IMG/VR virus record: IMGVR_UViG_3300010035_000001
Coordinates: 6,615 to 70,614 of that record
Length of the DNA: 64,000 nucleotides
Direction: 5' to 3' (one strand)
Source: a virus
How positions within the stretch are numbered: position 1 is the first letter of the stretch; each line of letters opens with the position of its first letter. A model generated the notes under the pieces. The model was given only the letters and a program-made list of their open reading frames with translations. It was not told where the DNA came from and did no database searches. This document shows, one piece after another, positions 22,982 to 60,415 of this stretch. A program made the position numbers and the translations under genes.

Positions 22982-23314
22982 AGATCTCTCCCAATATGAT
23001 CATAAGATCAATGGTTTTTATTTCTGGAATTAATGGTTTTTTCTTAAGAATTTTCATACTCTTTATTTCTGGAAAAATTCAAGATCATTTCTCACTGATT
23101 TTAAAAAAGCTATAGTAAGAAAGATAGTGATTACTATCTTAAACGCTTGAGAAAGAAAATTTGGAAAATTTATTTTTAACTATTTTATTTCTGGAAGAAC
23201 TAACCCAGTCAAATAAAAGGAAAAACGAGACGAAAAAAAGTTTCAAAAATTTGTTCCAGAAATAAATCTATTTTTCCAGAAAGAAAGAACCCAGAACAGA
23301 ATTTTAAAGGAAAA
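22982..23314. repeat. AT-rich non-coding region with five TTCCAGAAATAAA-type repeats and a perfect hairpin; candidate origin or regulatory hub
   Basis: TTTATTTCTGGAA at 23017, 23062, 23184; TTCCAGAAA(T/G)AAA at 23254, 23274; AAGATAGT-gatt-ACTATCTT at 23121-23140. Confidence 0.7.
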
Positions 23315-53412: not shown

Positions 53413-54831
53413 TTATGGCGCCCCTACGTAATTGGCCGCCCGGCCGATGTTACGGAACAAAACGTGGCGATTCGGGGCGTACAATTCGGGTACGCAGTAG
53501 ATCAATTGGATCCACCGAATCCGCAGATTGATAACAGCCAAGGGCACTTTCATCATCGGGGCCAGCTGTTTCAGACCCATACCCTGGTTGTTTTGTTGGA
53601 ACAAGAAACCATCAGAAGTGAATGGCAAGTTTGCGTTGAGATCGGTCAACACTTGCTCACCAACACCGGCCGCATTCGGAATGCGATCGATCAAACTCAA
53701 TGCCGTGGCGCCCGGTTTGGACCGATACAATTCGTACCAGTCAACAGCCTGGGCTCCCGCGGGAGTCATGCCGACAGTTGCTTTCTGACCTGCAGCAATG
53801 GCTAGCGCAGCACCCAAAGAAACAACAGCTGACTTGCCATACCGGTTACAGGCTTTGACGGAATAGGTGTAACTACCAGCGTCGCTCGCTGTGAATTGAG
53901 AGGCAGCATCGACAGAAGCTGCCAACGCAGTGGAGATTGTTGGGGTACCCGGAATCTTGGAAGCGTCGCCTTGCGCGGCCGCCACCGGGGCACCACCCAC
54001 CCAAATGAACGGATTGGGTTCGAATTGAACGGGACCGGACTGGCTAACCCATCCACCGATAGTTCGACCCCAACTCACATTGGGTTCATTCGAATGGGTG
54101 TCGTGTCGTTCCTTCGGGAAGAAGGTTTTTGCCAGATCGGCAATCACTTTCGGATTGCAGTGGAAGTTGGTTGCCCGACCATAGTTCGGAGCATCCGAGA
54201 TAGTCAAACACGCATCCTCAAGGACATCTTGGGAGAGAGGTTTGCCGCGCATGTCGATGATGTTGTCGGCGTTGCTGTTGTCCAGGATCATTCGACGGAA
54301 ACCATCAAATTGAAGTGCGGACAGATTGCTATCGCCGTAGAACAAACCTCTTTCCAACATCCGAAGCAGATGCATGGTCCCATTTGCGGTTTCCTGACCG
54401 ATGGCCGGACCGTGGGCCGTGTTGATCAGTGTGGCAGCATGTTTTACAGAACGGGTGGTCGCCAAGAATTTCACCTTGACGTGCACACGCTCGTACGTGC
54501 TGTCGTCTTCTTCGGGAAGGTCTCCATCCTCGATCCAACCCGCATCCGGATTGTTGCCGTAGGCATGCAACCGGTTGTACTCCTCAACCGTGTTGTACGC
54601 TGGCTGTGCGATCAGAGATTTGTAGAGACGAAGATGTTCCATCTCGTACGTGATCACATGCAGCGTGTCTTCCAAGGACTCCATTCGCAGGGCAAACGCA
54701 TCGCCGGGCGTCAAAGACGCCGGGGGATTGACGCTGTCTCCCGCAGTCAGGGCTTTGTTAAGGTCGTCTAGCTCTTCACCAGACATCACCCCAAACCCAT
54801 CAAGATCTTCGTAGTCGCTCATGGTAACCAT
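53413..54831 (-). CDS. major capsid protein (HK97 fold, SPO1/Twort-like)
   Basis: KALTAG...ALRMESLEDTL, PAYNTVEEYN, E.DLPEEDDSTYERV.VKVKFL, LERGLFYGDS, LQFDG. Confidence 0.93.
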   Translation of the reverse strand: MVTMSDYEDLDGFGVMSGEELDDLNKALTAGDSVNPPASLTPGDAFALRMESLEDTLHVITYEMEHLRLYKSLIAQPAYNTVEEYNRLHAYGNNPDAGWIEDGDLPEEDDSTYERVHVKVKFLATTRSVKHAATLINTAHGPAIGQETANGTMHLLRMLERGLFYGDSNLSALQFDGFRRMILDNSNADNIIDMRGKPLSQDVLEDACLTISDAPNYGRATNFHCNPKVIADLAKTFFPKERHDTHSNEPNVSWGRTIGGWVSQSGPVQFEPNPFIWVGGAPVAAAQGDASKIPGTPTISTALAASVDAASQFTASDAGSYTYSVKACNRYGKSAVVSLGAALAIAAGQKATVGMTPAGAQAVDWYELYRSKPGATALSLIDRIPNAAGVGEQVLTDLNANLPFTSDGFLFQQNNQGMGLKQLAPMMKVPLAVINLRIRWIQLIYCVPELYAPNRHVLFRNIGRAANYVGAP

Positions 54832-54887: not shown

Positions 54888-55676
54888 CTATTTGCCCGCT
54901 TGAACGATCCGGTTGTACAACCTGCGATCGACGTTTCCAGTTTGTTCGAATTCCCCCATCGCAGCACCAAGGGGGAGACCTTCCGGGGAAAGACCTTGGT
55001 GGCCTTTGTCCACGGAGTCTTTGTGCATAGCCTTCAAGCCAGCTTTGATTTCACTTTTGTTCAGCCGTTCACCCTTGGCCTCCGGCCCGGCCTGTTTCCC
55101 AAAAGATTTTTGGAGCGGTTGCCCCATCTTGGATTTCGGGCCCCTTACCGGTTGTTCCATGTATTCGGCAAAGGATTTCTGCATGTCCAAAACCGTCCGG
55201 CCAACTTCCCCAATGGCCCGAGCCAAGGCCACATTGAAATTGCCCTGTTGAGTTTGATTGCTCTCTACCACAGCAGCCAAATTCCCAAACGACTTGACCA
55301 ATTCACCATGTTGTTCAGCAACAAACTCAGAAATATTGATGGTCTCCTGCACAACCGGATTTTCGGCCATCGACTTCAACAAACTGTCGCTCAACGGCGC
55401 CTCGTCTTCCTCATCGTCTGCCTGACCACCCATGGCCTTGAATAGGTCGGTCTTTTCTTCATCGGTCAGATCCTGGGTTTGGGCCTTTTTCAGGAGAGCT
55501 TGTTTCCGGTCTTCGGAATCGGCCGGAATATTGGCCTCCAGATTCTGGAGAGATTTTTCCAGATCGGAAGTTTCCAACCCGGTGTCCTCTTCATCTCCGC
55601 CCATGTCTTGGTCATGGCCAGTAGGGGCCATGGACTTGTACAGATCCTGGCCATACCCGTTCTTCCTCGTTTTCAT
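54888..55676 (-). CDS. capsid scaffolding protein
   Basis: acidic/helical; between protease and MCP; many L-x-K-S motifs; AGGAGG SD at the revised start. Confidence 0.75.
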   Translation of the reverse strand: MKTRKNGYGQDLYKSMAPTGHDQDMGGDEEDTGLETSDLEKSLQNLEANIPADSEDRKQALLKKAQTQDLTDEEKTDLFKAMGGQADDEEDEAPLSDSLLKSMAENPVVQETINISEFVAEQHGELVKSFGNLAAVVESNQTQQGNFNVALARAIGEVGRTVLDMQKSFAEYMEQPVRGPKSKMGQPLQKSFGKQAGPEAKGERLNKSEIKAGLKAMHKDSVDKGHQGLSPEGLPLGAAMGEFEQTGNVDRRLYNRIVQAGK

Positions 55677-56500
55677 TGATTCGCCTCCTGATTGTTTCCT
55701 GCGTTCTTTTGGATTTGGGTGATTTTGATCAACCGATTGATTTGAGAAATCGTAGCCTGCGGAAGATGGGTTGCGGCCCATGCATAAACTTGGCTTTTGG
55801 TAAGGGTTTTGCTTTTCTTACAAATCTTGCAGCCAGGCTTCCCACAGGAACAAGTTTGGGGATTTTTGACATCAGATTCCAGAGATTGACGAGAAATGAC
55901 GCGACCTGCAGAATCGCCGCTTTGAGGACCGGTAGGCACGGGTACTTCATGACTGGTCCCAAGCGCCTTACCGAATTCCTCTTCCGCAGCCTCCAAAGAT
56001 TTGGCCAACACATCTAATGTCGCATCTCTATGGACCGGACAATGTGTCACAGCCACATCGCGCACCAAAGCTTTCGCAATGGTCTTGCCATTCTTTCCAA
56101 TTCTTTTTTGGATTTTCCCCTCAACAGAAAATCCGAGTTTTCTGGGAGCATCAGTGAGACTGTTGGCCAGTTCCCAAATTTCGTTGGCTCGCTTGGTTCT
56201 AACCATGTTGGCCTCAATCCAATGCCCGGCCGCTTTCGCGATATCTCCAGAAGGCAATTCATCGCCTTTCTGGAAAAATTTGACAGTGTCTGGATAGCCG
56301 ATTCGGGCTCCAGTCCCGCCATCATGGTTATCGTTGATCCAACCCTCATTGATGAATGGCGTGAAATCAAGGCCCCTTTGAAGAATCAACTCCCCTTGCT
56401 GATCTTTGGTTTCCAGAGATGCAATTCCCCCGATTCGACGAGAACCGCCCTTTTCAAAGGGCCGGAGAGGTACGCTGAATCTGAATTCATCTTTTTCCAT
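55673..56500 (-). CDS. prohead maturation protease (HK97/herpes-type)
   Basis: IGGIASLETKDQQGE, INDNH, GFSVEG, VAVTHCPV..AT. Confidence 0.9.
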   Translation of the reverse strand: MEKDEFRFSVPLRPFEKGGSRRIGGIASLETKDQQGELILQRGLDFTPFINEGWINDNHDGGTGARIGYPDTVKFFQKGDELPSGDIAKAAGHWIEANMVRTKRANEIWELANSLTDAPRKLGFSVEGKIQKRIGKNGKTIAKALVRDVAVTHCPVHRDATLDVLAKSLEAAEEEFGKALGTSHEVPVPTGPQSGDSAGRVISRQSLESDVKNPQTCSCGKPGCKICKKSKTLTKSQVYAWAATHLPQATISQINRLIKITQIQKNAGNNQEANQ

Positions 56501-56515
56501 GGTCTCTCCAGAAAC

Positions 56516-56552
56516 AAAAAAAGGGGCAGATCAGCAAGAGCCAATCTGCCCC
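56516..56552 (-). terminator. intrinsic terminator in the leader of the protease-scaffold-capsid operon
   Basis: GGGGCAGAT(TGGC-TCTT-GCTG)ATCTGCCCC followed by T7, 15 nt upstream of the protease ATG. Confidence 0.8.
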
Positions 56553-56594
56553 AATCGGTTGCCTAAAATACAACCCTAGCGGGCTTCTGATTTT

Positions 56595-56623
56595 AGGCTA
56601 GAGATTATTTCTGGAATTGTCAA
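56595..56623 (-). promoter_or_regulatory. sigma70-type promoter with TTCCAGAAATAA in its spacer
   Basis: TTGACA-attccagaaataatctc (17 nt)-TAGCCT. Confidence 0.7.
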
Positions 56624-56629
56624 GCGGGA

Positions 56630-56667
56630 AGAAACAACAAAGGGGTTCCACCGTCGCGGAACCCCTT
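56630..56667 (-). terminator. intrinsic terminator after candidate ncRNA
   Basis: AAGGGGTTCC-gcgacggt-GGAACCCCTT 10-bp stem followed by TGTTGTTTCTT. Confidence 0.8.
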
Positions 56668-56678
56668 GAAAACTATTT

Positions 56679-56845
56679 GCGGACCGTGTCGGCCCATGTA
56701 AAGGTGACACGTTGGCCCGGCTACCTAGGGAGGCCGTTTACCCTTGAGTTTGGGGGCCCTGGCCGCGTCCGGCGCCACCTGTATCATCATGGGACTCAAA
56801 GACACCGCGCCCCATCGACCAAGAGGGTGTGCCCAAAGTCCGCGC
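56679..56845 (-). ncRNA. candidate structured non-coding RNA of unknown family (~167 nt plus terminator)
   Basis: GC-rich intergenic segment; 5' GCGGAC pairs with 3' GUCCGC; internal stems CUUUGAGU/ACUCAAGG, GGCCU/GGGCC, CGUGUC/GACACG, GGGCAC/GUGUCU. Confidence 0.55.
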
Positions 56846-56890
56846 AGTATTAGGATGACACAGGCCAAAACGATCATATCTAAAATCCGA

Positions 56891-57223
56891 TTAAGCAGTC
56901 AGTTGTCTTGGAATTTTGATCCAATTTGGATCGGTTTTTCGACGATGATCCAAAGCATCCTGAATTTGTTCCCAGAAAGGGACCAACAATGCCTGAACCA
57001 TTTCTTGTACCTGAGAATTGGTGATTCCCAATAGATGTTTTTCTGGGAGGCGGATCACATGTCTGAATGTACCAGCAAAACGATGATGAACTTCGATCTT
57101 TACGATACTTTCCAACCGGTGAGACACATGCCCTATTTCGACTATTTCAGCACGAAATTGGAACCTTTTCTTAAGCGCATCACAGACTATTTGGCCAATC
57201 CAAGACATCAGATCGCGCATGTT
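56891..57223 (-). CDS. hypothetical protein (110 aa)
   Basis: GAGAGGCGG SD before ATG 57223. Confidence 0.6.
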   Translation of the reverse strand, partial: NMRDLMSWIGQIVCDALKKRFQFRAEIVEIGHVSHRLESIVKIEVHHRFAGTFRHVIRLPEKHLLGITNSQVQEMVQALLVPFWEQIQDALDHRRKTDPNWIKIPRQLTA

Positions 57224-57277
57224 CGTAAACCGCCTCTCAAGGTACAAGTGGAAGTATGACAATCCCGTACTTGAGAA

Positions 57278-57493
57278 TCAAGCCTTGACCAACCGCACCT
57301 TCAATTCGAACATTTTTCCGGTTCCAGACTTTGACATCTTTTCTTTTTTCGCCAAAGCAGCACCGAGAGACATGCCGTCCGTCAATTGCAAAGGTTTGTT
57401 TTTCTGGTTACGCAAGCTGCCAAACACTGCGAAATCCATGTTGGTCTCCGGGAGCGGTTTCGAAATCTGAGCCAGCTTTACTTGATAGGTCAT
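57278..57493 (-). CDS. small basic hypothetical protein
   Basis: GGAGGG SD; first gene after promoter P4. Confidence 0.7.
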   Translation of the reverse strand: MTYQVKLAQISKPLPETNMDFAVFGSLRNQKNKPLQLTDGMSLGAALAKKEKMSKSGTGKMFELKVRLVKA

Positions 57494-57519
57494 GGGTTCC
57501 CTCCACGCGTTATAGAGAT

Positions 57520-57548
57520 ACAGTACACCATTATGGTGGGTCTGTCAA
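57520..57548 (-). promoter_or_regulatory. sigma70-type promoter P4 with perfect spacer palindrome CACCATAATGGTG
   Basis: TTGACA-17 nt-TACTGT. Confidence 0.75.
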
Positions 57549-57556
57549 CCTTATTT

Positions 57557-57598
57557 TTCCAGAAAAAAATATTTCTGGAAAATTTTTATTTCTGGAAA
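57557..57598. promoter_or_regulatory. three TTCCAGAAA-type sites (one inverted pair) between divergent promoters
   Basis: TTCCAGAAA 57557, ATTTCTGGAA 57571, TTTATTTCTGGAA 57586. Confidence 0.65.
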
Positions 57599-57652
57599 TT
57601 TTCTCTTTACCTTCCCTCCAAAGTGCCGTATATCATGTGGAGGAGGGTTACG

Positions 57653-57988
57653 ATGTACGAACACCAAAATGGGCTGAAAAATCGCAAAGCCAAAGACTTG
57701 GATCCGGGGGCTGCCATGGAAAAGATCGATCAGCAGTTCAGCCAAGGTTCAGTTGTCTTGGAAAAACTCCACAACATGGCCGCGGGTGTGGCTAAACTAG
57801 GTGGGGAACTTCGTTGTGTTTTTCTCCATCCTGGTGACTACAACGCATTGGTTCTCTGGAGTCTGGGTACACCCAGAGCATTCCCACATAATGATTTTGA
57901 AGTCTCACTCGGTGGACGAATGATTCCCATCAAAGTCAACACCCAGGGAAAACCCACACCTGGTGTTTTTCGGGTAGACTATGTCTAA
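57653..57988 (+). CDS. hypothetical protein (111 aa), plus strand
   Basis: GGAGGAGGG SD before ATG 57653; candidate -10 TATCAT at 57631. Confidence 0.7.
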   Translation: MYEHQNGLKNRKAKDLDPGAAMEKIDQQFSQGSVVLEKLHNMAAGVAKLGGELRCVFLHPGDYNALVLWSLGTPRAFPHNDFEVSLGGRMIPIKVNTQGKPTPGVFRVDYV

Positions 57989-58463
57989 GTCAGAAGCAGT
58001 TCTTTCCAGTCTGGAAAGCCGTATTGGGTTGAAGTTTTCCAGAAAGTATCGAGATTTGTTTTTGGATCTTCCAGAAATAAAGATTCAAGCTATTCATCGC
58101 TTCCTGAAAGTAACCGGGAAAGACGAAATTGATTTCTCTGTAGCGTATGGGTCCTGTTTCTTGTTTTCCACCAAGACAGGAATTCGACCCGGGTTGTCCA
58201 TGACCATCAGTCTGATCACCCCTTTATTTGAAGGGGCTCTCATGACATTCGAACAATCAACTTTCAAATCTACTCGATTCCCTACAGCTAAAATCTGGGA
58301 CCTTTTTCCAGCCTATATTGCAGCCAAAACCCATGCAGACTCAAAAGGCCGTTGCAACATGTGTGGTAAGGAATTGGAGAATATAGGAAAAAAATACTGC
58401 TCAACCGAATGCCGTAGGGCAGCTTTGGATGCAGGTAAAAGTTCAGCCACGATTGGGTGGTAA
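57981..58463 (+). CDS. hypothetical protein with C-terminal treble-clef zinc finger
   Basis: CNMCGKEL...KKYCSTECR; overlaps upstream gene stop. Confidence 0.7.
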   Translation: MSKSEAVLSSLESRIGLKFSRKYRDLFLDLPEIKIQAIHRFLKVTGKDEIDFSVAYGSCFLFSTKTGIRPGLSMTISLITPLFEGALMTFEQSTFKSTRFPTAKIWDLFPAYIAAKTHADSKGRCNMCGKELENIGKKYCSTECRRAALDAGKSSATIGW

Positions 58464-58673
58464 CCGCCGTCTTTTGTTTACAATCAATGGTTTATTCGGC
58501 ATCTTCTCACCCAAAATCAGTTTGATAGGTAAATCCACATCAGCTTTGCACCAAAAGCATTTGGCTTGGCACTTCCCACGCTCAGCATCGAACACCAATG
58601 GCCCCTGAGTTCTTAATCGGATTTGTGACCCAGATTGTTGAACGACATGATGTCCACACTGATGACATCTCAT
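58443..58673 (-). CDS. zinc-ribbon protein
   Basis: RCHQCG...KCFWCK; ATGA overlap with the MuF gene. Confidence 0.7.
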   Translation of the reverse strand: MRCHQCGHHVVQQSGSQIRLRTQGPLVFDAERGKCQAKCFWCKADVDLPIKLILGEKMPNKPLIVNKRRRLPPNRG

Positions 58674-60415
58674 TTGCTACCCCTTACCGGCGTCTGGATC
58701 AACGGTGATTTGTTTCTGGAAACATCCACTTCCAGAGTTTGCGTGTGTCGCCACTTCTTCAATCGGTTTTGTGCTCCCTCAATATCACGATCGGTCCGGA
58801 CTTCGCCAATCAGTGTCTCAATGGTTGGCCCCAAAGGTTCATGTTTAACCGGTCGATGCGTCACAGGTACAAGCAAATCCTCTTTCTCCCAGGCATTAGC
58901 TTTCCGCCGTCGATCCAACATTGCTTGATCATTGGCTTGTTGCTCTGGGGTTTGTTCCACAACTGGGTAGCCTCCCGAAGTCTTGTAGGACTCGCGTTTC
59001 GGTCTGGGGGTAGGTCGAATGTAGTTGGCAATGGTCCCGGGCGATGGGTTCCCGATTCCCCGAACCCCCACCAGAGCCATTTCCTTTGTGATGTTGCCTT
59101 TGCTTTTTCGGACCATGCCATCACTTGGATCACCCTGCTGGAACGTCTCCTGTACCGCCCGCTGCGCCAACAACCACCGCTTGAACGCATCCATCGACAT
59201 GGCCTGGAATCGGAGCACGAAATCATCTCGATCAAGATGGCGCCGATAGGCCATTTGGGCTTCCTTTGTTGACGAAAACCCCACCATGCATTTCTTCTCA
59301 TCGTAGAGACCGGTATGGGGATTCTTCTGATCCACGACATACGCCATTCGAGCTTTTTTGTCTGGCCCAACATACACGTCCAATTCATCCCCATCATCCC
59401 CTGGGATACCTGGGATATAGCCGTAAATGGCAGACATGATGGTTACACCTTCAGTTCCACTTTGATCGCACCATCGGCGTTCCATCCCCGGCTTGGACTC
59501 GATCACGATAGGGATTCCCTGAAAGACCATCTTCCCAATTGGCTTCCAAGATTTCCTGAGCGGTGGATCGCTCTTTTGAATCATGGATTCCGGGACAATA
59601 TCCCCATCCTTATTGAAAGCCCAACCATCTGGAATACGAATCAATTGACACTGGCAATGGGGATGCAACGCCCCCACGACAGGCAACCAATCTGCTACTT
59701 TCTTTCCCACGTTGGTTCCATTCGCCTCAAGTTCAGACAACTTGAAAATCTTGGGATTGCCGTTGTCGTCGAGGTAGAGCCGTTTACAATGCTTGCAGGC
59801 GTCCGGCATTGTCCTCTTTGCAACCAGGGAATCCGGCCCATGGGATTTCCGGTAATGATCAGCCAAGCCTTGTTGCATGGCCATGTGCTTTTCGGTGATG
59901 GCCACCCTTGTCCAATCTCGTTCCCATTTGTCCATTTGCCAGTGCAGATCGCTTGCGAGATTCTTGACAGCCTTTCGTTTAGCCACATTCAAAGCTGTGG
60001 CATCTTGGATGTTTTGCACACGAAGTTTTCGATCGGCCTCCTGAATGCTGTTATTGACCCCCACAGAAACACGTTGGCCAAGGCCAGTGATGTACTGCGC
60101 CGCATTAAGCGCGGCCATCTTGATCGCCTGCTTTTCGCCTGGGCCAAGGTCAGCTTCCACCTTGGGAATACGTTCCCGCATTTTCCCAACACCCATGGAT
60201 ATGGTGGTTTTGCTCGGACTCTGCCCAACCAGGTGGCCGTATAAGTACGCCTCTTTGATGGCTTCCATCTTGGGGGAATAGAGACCTAGGTCTTTCAGTC
60301 GCTGTAAAGTCTCCGGAGGCAATGCATCTGGACTGATCGTATTCGCAATGAAAGCATCATGGTGGTCCCGAATGATGTTCAGGATTTCAATCAACTGCTC
60401 AGGCGTTAGAAGCAT
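58670..60415 (-). CDS. MuF/SPP1 gp7-like head morphogenesis protein fused to an inorganic-pyrophosphatase-like (InPase) domain
   Basis: ACKHC...GALHPHCQC MuF motif; FQGIPIVIE.KPG..R...YGYIPG..GDDGDELDVYVGP...DEKKCMVGF InPase-like. Confidence 0.85.
   Translation of the reverse strand: MLLTPEQLIEILNIIRDHHDAFIANTISPDALPPETLQRLKDLGLYSPKMEAIKEAYLYGHLVGQSPSKTTISMGVGKMRERIPKVEADLGPGEKQAIKMAALNAAQYITGLGQRVSVGVNNSIQEADRKLRVQNIQDATALNVAKRKAVKNLASDLHWQMDKWERDWTRVAITEKHMAMQQGLADHYRKSHGPDSLVAKRTMPDACKHCKRLYLDDNGNPKIFKLSELEANGTNVGKKVADWLPVVGALHPHCQCQLIRIPDGWAFNKDGDIVPESMIQKSDPPLRKSWKPIGKMVFQGIPIVIESKPGMERRWCDQSGTEGVTIMSAIYGYIPGIPGDDGDELDVYVGPDKKARMAYVVDQKNPHTGLYDEKKCMVGFSSTKEAQMAYRRHLDRDDFVLRFQAMSMDAFKRWLLAQRAVQETFQQGDPSDGMVRKSKGNITKEMALVGVRGIGNPSPGTIANYIRPTPRPKRESYKTSGGYPVVEQTPEQQANDQAMLDRRRKANAWEKEDLLVPVTHRPVKHEPLGPTIETLIGEVRTDRDIEGAQNRLKKWRHTQTLEVDVSRNKSPLIQTPVRGSK

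Follow-up and report, generated by a model that had tools for sequence, protein, structure and literature searches.

The locus upstream of the prohead protease gene

The stretch of DNA analysed here (the window, 64,000 nt) comes from a contig of 110,097 bp that belongs to an uncultured phage with a genome of about 110 kb. Its minus strand encodes a MuF-like head protein with an InPase domain (58670-60415), the prohead protease (55673-56500), a probable scaffold protein (54888-55781) and the major capsid protein (53413-54831), the last being at most 37% identical to the capsid proteins of SPO1-like Bacillus phages. The closest relatives of the protease are only about 50% identical and are found on contigs of 105-112 kb, some of which have direct terminal repeats. 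The MuF/InPase protein is 581 aa long in the window; the genes at the corresponding position in L001 (1-3335) and L002 (1-3329) encode polyvalent proteins of 2,430-2,500 aa, and the counterpart in L004 has 1,417 aa with InPase and ddrB-ParB domains. When the host was searched for among genome contigs, the nearest matches were MAGs from many different phyla.

The protease gene is separated from an orphan ORF of 109 aa (56891-57220, minus strand, TAA stop at 56893-56891) by a gap of 390 nt (56501-56890), and within this gap, with the ORF directly upstream, lies a GC-rich element. The same ORF was also listed as 123 aa from a TTG at 57262, yet the 109-aa form starting at the ATG at 57220 is likelier, as public gene sets list the ORF in this form and the 42 nt upstream belong to a spacer conserved at 91%. 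Its product matched no family, and its structural look-alikes, viral hypothetical proteins and HPF/YfiA-like folds at a TM of about 0.5, are weak leads only.

The initial annotation had placed a GC-rich stretch of about 167 nt between the ORF stop (56891) and a strong terminator, and both observations are correct. The G+C content of 56679-56845 is 64.7% as compared with a window mean of 48.5%, ranking second among all 167-nt segments of the 64 kb, and the local peak falls exactly on these coordinates. In the 89 related loci compared, the GC excess reached a maximum of +0.114, whereas it is about +0.16 at the element; the lengths of the upstream gaps in these loci proved not to be comparable, as chance ORFs in GC-rich DNA shorten gaps. 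The intrinsic terminator, T1 (56628-56667, minus strand), consists of a GC-rich stem of 12 bp (56667-56640) followed by UUUGUUGUUUCUU, its tail being an interrupted T-tract (TGTTGTTTCT).

The stretch is non-coding and belongs to none of the RNA families to which it was compared. Covariance models of Rfam 15 gave no match in the whole window at the gathering score, and at E<=10 the region 56400-57000 gave four chance-level hits only, all of them outside the element, in agreement with the previously noted lack of a tRNA, SRP, RNase P, 6S or riboswitch identity; ARAGORN likewise detected no tRNA or tmRNA. A repeat or MITE was rejected, the element being single-copy in the window, and so was the idea that the element arose by degradation from the 68-aa four-Cys zinc-ribbon gene of relatives (see below), given that the Cys pattern appears in no frame and that there is no DNA similarity.

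Downstream of T1 and outside the element, a promoter (TTGACA-17-TAGCCT), a leader and a second terminator, T2 (56552-56523), precede the protease gene on the minus strand (56501-56627); this promoter begins about 15-20 nt past the T-rich tail of T1, which is about 40 nt past its stem. The same order of promoter, leader and terminator is found in relatives that lack the element (L001 3860-4000, L002 3860-4000, L004 3870-4000). The leader contains a GCGATAGG-like box and the strong terminator is separated from the start codon of the protease gene by only about 15 nt, which, in phages whose proteases are about 50% identical, suggests a conserved attenuator controlling the head operon. The word TTCCAGAAA occurs 26 times in the window as compared with 1.4 expected (e.g., 56608-56616, 57557-57597 and 23021-23282); the spacer of the protease promoter contains one of these copies, and L001 and L002 have its reverse complement, TTCTGGAA, at the same place of the promoter. 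Antisense pairing of the element with the protease leader or T2 was also considered and rejected, as the duplex energy of -64.9 is matched by that of shuffles (-66.0 +/- 4.8, p=0.58).

Occurrence in relatives and conservation

The element is known from the window phage and from one near-identical sequence, L006, an ENA metagenome contig of 1,094 bp. A further contig, L099, is a second contig of the window phage with an identical sequence, and therefore only two distinct sequences are available. The element was not found in about 95 related loci, 80 viral and 12 genome-derived loci among these, that were searched by blastn and nhmmer (85 loci) and with the covariance models R1 and R2 (97 sources, 649 kb), and the same two models showed it to be absent from five complete relatives of about 110 kb. 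Searching the 50,697 records of a cultured-phage collection by blastn with 56400-57000 returned nothing, nor did exact-word scans of public viral (four words), metagenome (two each) and genome (one) contigs. The restricted distribution extends to the proteins encoded upstream: in sets of 5.8 billion and 1.8 billion proteins, the sole homologues of the 109-aa protein and of a 71-aa protein encoded ahead of it are those of L006, the former with 77% amino-acid identity.

In L001-L005, whose proteases are about 50% identical to that of the window phage, the element is missing and the 68-aa four-Cys zinc-ribbon gene is present instead (L001 3667-3873, L002 3664-3870, L004 3555-3761). The 3' end of this gene runs into the -35 box of a TTGACA promoter, which is directly followed by a short leader, a terminator and the protease gene. 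As the promoter-leader-terminator unit is also present in the window (56627-56501), the element belongs to an island of about 2 kb that replaces the zinc-ribbon gene. This island comprises two plus-strand ORFs, the P4 promoter (TTGACA-17-TACTGT, at about 57545), which drives the 71-aa and then the 109-aa ORF, the element and T1. The four island proteins (56891-58463) have 71, 109, 111 and 160 aa, the last with a C-terminal Cys4 motif, and none of them matched Pfam, PHROG or PADLOC. Since all more distant relatives lack the element, phages of this family can express their head genes without it.

Comparison with L006 shows that the 390-nt gap is 94.4% identical, free of indels, and that the element itself is 92.2% identical (13 substitutions), whereas the nucleotide identities of the 109-aa and 71-aa ORFs are 80.6% and 84.7% and their third codon positions diverge by 31-34%. 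The proteins encoded by the 71-aa and 109-aa ORFs diverge fast (13% and 23% amino-acid difference, respectively), and the non-coding DNA flanking these ORFs is 91-98% identical. The higher identity of the gap than of the ORFs looks like constraint on non-coding DNA. However, the first 27 codons of the protease gene carry only 3 synonymous changes, and because their third-position divergence is only 11%, a recently shared block that extends from the ORF stop onward is an alternative, and the conservation argument alone is not decisive.

Such recent shared ancestry would also explain the similarity to L006 if the stretch were a non-functional remnant of GC-richer foreign DNA that was brought along with the 2-kb island. 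The element is single-copy, lineage-restricted and missing from all relatives, it has stop codons in all frames, and its divergence of 7.8% is about equal to the 11% of the adjacent protease codons, all of which fit a remnant. The complete lack of indels over 390 nt of non-coding DNA fits it poorly, and a donor sequence was not found in any collection searched. A remnant would also require the hairpin described in the next section to be a by-product of GC-rich composition, and we consider this explanation rather unlikely.

A different use of the stretch would be to encode a small protein. On the minus strand a 50-codon ORF (56725-56877) overlaps the element and begins with the hydrophobic sequence MIVLACVILIL, as might a type I toxin-like membrane peptide, and the mRNAs of type I toxins are typically highly structured. 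The frame is open and of equal length in L006, only 4 of the 50 residues differ, which is below the 13-23% seen in the neighbouring proteins, and identity is complete over the first 19 and the last 14 residues. The nucleotide changes, however, are distributed as in neutral DNA: six of nine fall at codon positions 1 and 2 and three at position 3, the neutral ratio of 2:1, as compared with 27:37 and 11:22 in the two neighbouring real genes, and none of the reading frames in the gap has substitutions between the window and L006 that look like those of a coding sequence. Among the four amino-acid changes, two are radical and arise from double-nucleotide changes, and one of these two is exactly the change that preserves a pair of the RNA helix described below. 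Unlike the neighbouring genes with their GGAG-type sites, the ORF has no clear Shine-Dalgarno sequence, and its ATG sits inside the -10 hexamer of a promoter-like site. The hydrophobic run extends over 11 residues only and is followed by an Arg, Pfam and PHROG gave no match, and no gene is called at this position in L006 or L099. An antisense promoter of the type I kind was looked for on the plus strand and none was found; a plus-strand terminator-like site at 56916-56934 has lost its T-tract in L006. The 50-codon ORF is thus probably not a gene, and we regard a small protein as a very unlikely product of this stretch.

A predicted 92-nt hairpin and the GC-rich 3' domain

The GC-rich stretch had initially been annotated as a compact RNA, in which complementary ends (GCGGAC/GUCCGC) close a set of further helices. 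In GC-rich sequence many helices arise by chance, and while the five named helices can all be drawn with standard pairs, as a set they are 13.5 kcal/mol worse than the best fold of the stretch and do not exceed chance. The folding energy of the 167 nt on the minus strand, -70.9 kcal/mol, is no better than that of dinucleotide shuffles (-67.3 +/- 4.3 kcal/mol, z -0.85; 39 of 200 shuffles equal it), as would be the case for a remnant, and the plus strand gives a z of -1.39. When the proposed helices are enforced in the 239-nt RNA, the energy worsens by 14 kcal/mol for the window sequence and by 23 kcal/mol for L006. Nor is the fold kept in relatives, as beyond the window phage the stretch was found only in the near-identical L006, where the best 167-nt fold is lost (base-pair distance 80, with about 18 kcal/mol lost on the fold of the window). 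In tests of where the substitutions fall, the 167-nt boundaries gave p=0.34-0.73 and the proposed helices p=0.12. We conclude that the compact 167-nt fold with complementary ends is not supported.

What does stand of a structured minus-strand RNA is an imperfect hairpin of 92 nt (56775-56866) that overlaps the stretch in part. Its structure begins 21 nt upstream of the annotated boundary, at 56866, and was revealed by adding these 21 nt, up to the start predicted from the promoter-like site; the window and L006 sequences then fold alike. The outer helix of 12 bp pairs 56865-56854 with 56788-56777 (GCCUGUGUCAUC with GAUGAUACAGGU) and is separated by an asymmetric internal loop of 12 nt and 3 nt from two inner helices, GGACUU/GAGUCC (56841-56836/56797-56792) and GGGCAC/GUGUCU (56834-56829/56805-56800), above which lies a short apical helix (56826-56822/56813-56808). 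The formerly proposed closing stem competes with the GGACUU/GAGUCC helix of this better-supported hairpin and, together with a long-range UUGAGU/ACUCAA helix, is mutually exclusive with the hairpin, whereas the GGGCAC/GUGUCU and CGUGUC/GACACG helices are common to the proposed fold and the supported structure.

In each of the two phages the hairpin is more stable than its dinucleotide shuffles, with a z of -2.38 for the window sequence and of -3.27 for that of L006, and since these shuffles keep composition, the result speaks against a by-product of GC-rich DNA. All 29 pairs are intact in both sequences. Of the eight substitutions that separate them five are unpaired and three keep their pair, changing A-U to G-U, U-A to U-G and G-U to G-C, i.e., three one-sided compatible changes, with neither double changes nor broken pairs; as only two distinct sequences exist, no compensatory double change is visible. 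We compared these substitutions with a null in which each substitution type is retained but its position is drawn at random among those with the same base. On the fold of the window itself, which is not fitted to L006, the L006 substitutions yield a ddG of -1.3 kcal/mol as compared with +11.6 +/- 4.9 kcal/mol under the null (p=0.0004, range to 0.002), the number of broken pairs is 0 as compared with 2.6 expected (p=0.016), and for the consensus folding energy p is 0.003 on the sense strand and 0.08-0.17 on the antisense strand, all these p-values needing an approximately 8-fold correction because several boundaries and statistics were tried. Due to seven G-U pairs, the sense form of the hairpin exceeds the antisense form in stability by 8.6 kcal/mol. 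The substitutions thus spare the pairs of the hairpin beyond chance, more clearly on the sense strand than on the antisense strand, which is not what a decaying remnant would be expected to show. The 239-nt RNA as a whole is not significantly structured (shuffle z -1.73), and a K-turn around the C/D-box-like AUGAUGA was rejected, its partner CUGA being absent and the motif not conserved. Judging from the two sequences, RNA-level structure on the minus strand is supported in part, the evidence covering the 92-nt hairpin only.

The remainder of the element is a GC-rich 3' domain (56680-56773, minus strand) for which small hairpins are predicted at 56773-56762, 56759-56731 and 56719-56680. It is nearly invariant, with 3 substitutions in 94 nt and 53 nt (56773-56721) without any change. 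All three changes are structure-neutral in the fold of the window, a test of low power (p ~0.1-0.18), and the domain as a whole does not stand out from shuffles (z -1.19); the one part that does is the 27-nt CGUGUC/GACACG hairpin (56711-56685, z -3.3).

With its 3' part nearly invariant and yet lacking demonstrable RNA structure, the stretch might instead be a DNA-level site, either one to which a regulator binds that acts on the head promoter, 60-250 bp further downstream, or one that serves recombination or packaging. The element lies just upstream of the conserved protease promoter, and GGGCC and CGGCC occur five times in the 3' part. However, relatives have the same promoter-leader-terminator unit without the element, the over-represented operator word of this phage, TTCCAGAAA, is absent from it, and the terminase genes are far away. 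In the 5' part, moreover, the substitution pattern is clearer on the sense RNA strand, where the G-U pairs form that would be C-A mismatches on the other strand. For these reasons a DNA-level site appears highly improbable to us.

Upstream of the hairpin, a promoter-like site (CTGACT-18-TATGAT, 56873-56902, minus strand) has 9 of 12 consensus matches, with its -35 hexamer in the last codons of the 109-aa ORF and a predicted start near G56866. Both hexamers are invariant in L006, the one change (56886) falling in the spacer, but as one such site was found and 1.2 are expected in shuffles, the site is without statistical support. The stem of T1 at the other end is also invariant in L006, with a single change in the tail at 56636. 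As the promoter-like site and T1 flank the region, a discrete RNA of about 235 nt is possible.

A proposed structured RNA and comparison with known systems

Based on these data we propose that a small, lineage-specific operon was inserted here, in which P4 would be followed by the 71-aa ORF and the 109-aa ORF, and that the stretch forms its structured, non-coding 3' end. The RNA would run on the minus strand to T1 at about 56632, either from about 56866 or, as a 3' UTR, from further upstream, and would consist of three parts, the selected 92-nt hairpin, the sequence-conserved GC-rich segment 56773-56680 and the hairpin of T1. Its most likely role would be that of a cis-acting RNA that stabilises or processes the 3' end of the island transcript, and the element and T1 together would act as an insulator between the island and the late head operon. 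Alternatively, a small RNA of the 3'-UTR type, about 235 nt long, might be released from this transcript or started at CTGACT-18-TATGAT. We assign a probability of roughly one half to this reading, in which a small inserted operon has a lineage-specific, structured 3' UTR ending at T1, or a small RNA is made from that UTR. What the data show are the GC island, T1, the thermodynamic excess of the hairpin and the pair-sparing substitutions that favour the sense strand, whereas the transcription of the stretch as a discrete RNA, as well as what such an RNA would do, is inferred.

It is conceivable that the RNA is instead initiated independently, giving a small RNA that would extend over about 235 nt, from 56866 to about 56632, would represent an undescribed family and would have been acquired with a mobile, early-expressed island inserted into the head module. 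Such an RNA would act in trans, for example on mRNAs of the host or the phage, or as a decoy for host proteins such as an RNA-binding defence factor or chaperone. We consider this quite unlikely. A remnant, a small protein and a DNA-level site each fit the sense-biased, pair-sparing substitutions less well than a structured RNA does.

As the case rests on two near-identical sequences and 8-16 substitutions, we regard the structured 3' end as a lead for transcript mapping rather than as a discovery. The analysis corrects both the boundary and the fold of the structure, and the unit that merits testing is the 92-nt hairpin from 56866, rather than the closed multi-helix fold of 167 nt. If real, it would be a new phage-encoded structured RNA in a small accessory island that interrupts the conserved head-gene module of a widespread, uncultured family of phages of about 110 kb. 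Such islands often hold host-takeover or counter-defence functions, and their RNA components are rarely recognised.

The roles suggested in the initial annotation were those of a packaging RNA, a protein sponge or a decoy. Among known phage RNAs, the phi29 packaging RNA, pRNA (RF00044), is likewise a phage-encoded structured RNA of similar length, but the element, unlike pRNA, has no Rfam match at E<=10, and the window phage, with its SPO1-like capsid protein, its size of about 110 kb and relatives that have direct terminal repeats, is not a phi29-like, protein-primed podovirus. From the cabRNA of staphylococcal phages it is known that a structured RNA of a morphogenesis region can be relevant to defence (PMC10686824). 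The element is similarly a candidate structured RNA from a region of virion-morphogenesis genes, although nothing in this analysis links it to a defence system.

The put RNAs of phage HK022 are cis-acting elements of processive antitermination that consist of two short stem-loops of about 70 nt in total. Like put, the element is structured and is placed between a promoter and terminators (T1 and T2) ahead of essential late genes; unlike put, it is dispensed with by relatives that keep the T2 attenuator, and because these retain both the head promoter and the attenuator without it, the element does not serve as a general antiterminator in this family. Hairpins processed by RNase III are found between the genes of phage T7 and in the sib and N-leader regions of lambda, the classical substrates comprising about two helical turns, and in a site of the T7 type the double-stranded RNA extends almost without interruption over at least about 20 bp. 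The element shares with these a long imperfect hairpin with internal loops in an intergenic position at the boundary between transcription units, but its longest helix is 12 bp, followed by the 12/3-nt asymmetric loop and then by helices of 6 bp.

Small RNAs derived from 3' UTRs, such as DapZ, MicL and NarS, share the terminator of their mRNA, and some of them have a promoter inside the upstream ORF (PMC7038943). The element is comparable in that it lies directly past a stop codon (56893-56891) and ends at the intrinsic terminator of the operon, T1, with no other ORF showing a coding signal in between, in that a promoter-like site, a chance-level match with hexamers that are invariant in L006, overlaps the end of the upstream ORF, and in that it is structured and more conserved in sequence than the preceding ORF. 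It differs from most of these RNAs in being GC-rich and longer, about 235 nt. The element resembles 3'-UTR-derived small RNAs in its position and the intergenic processing hairpins of phages in its form.
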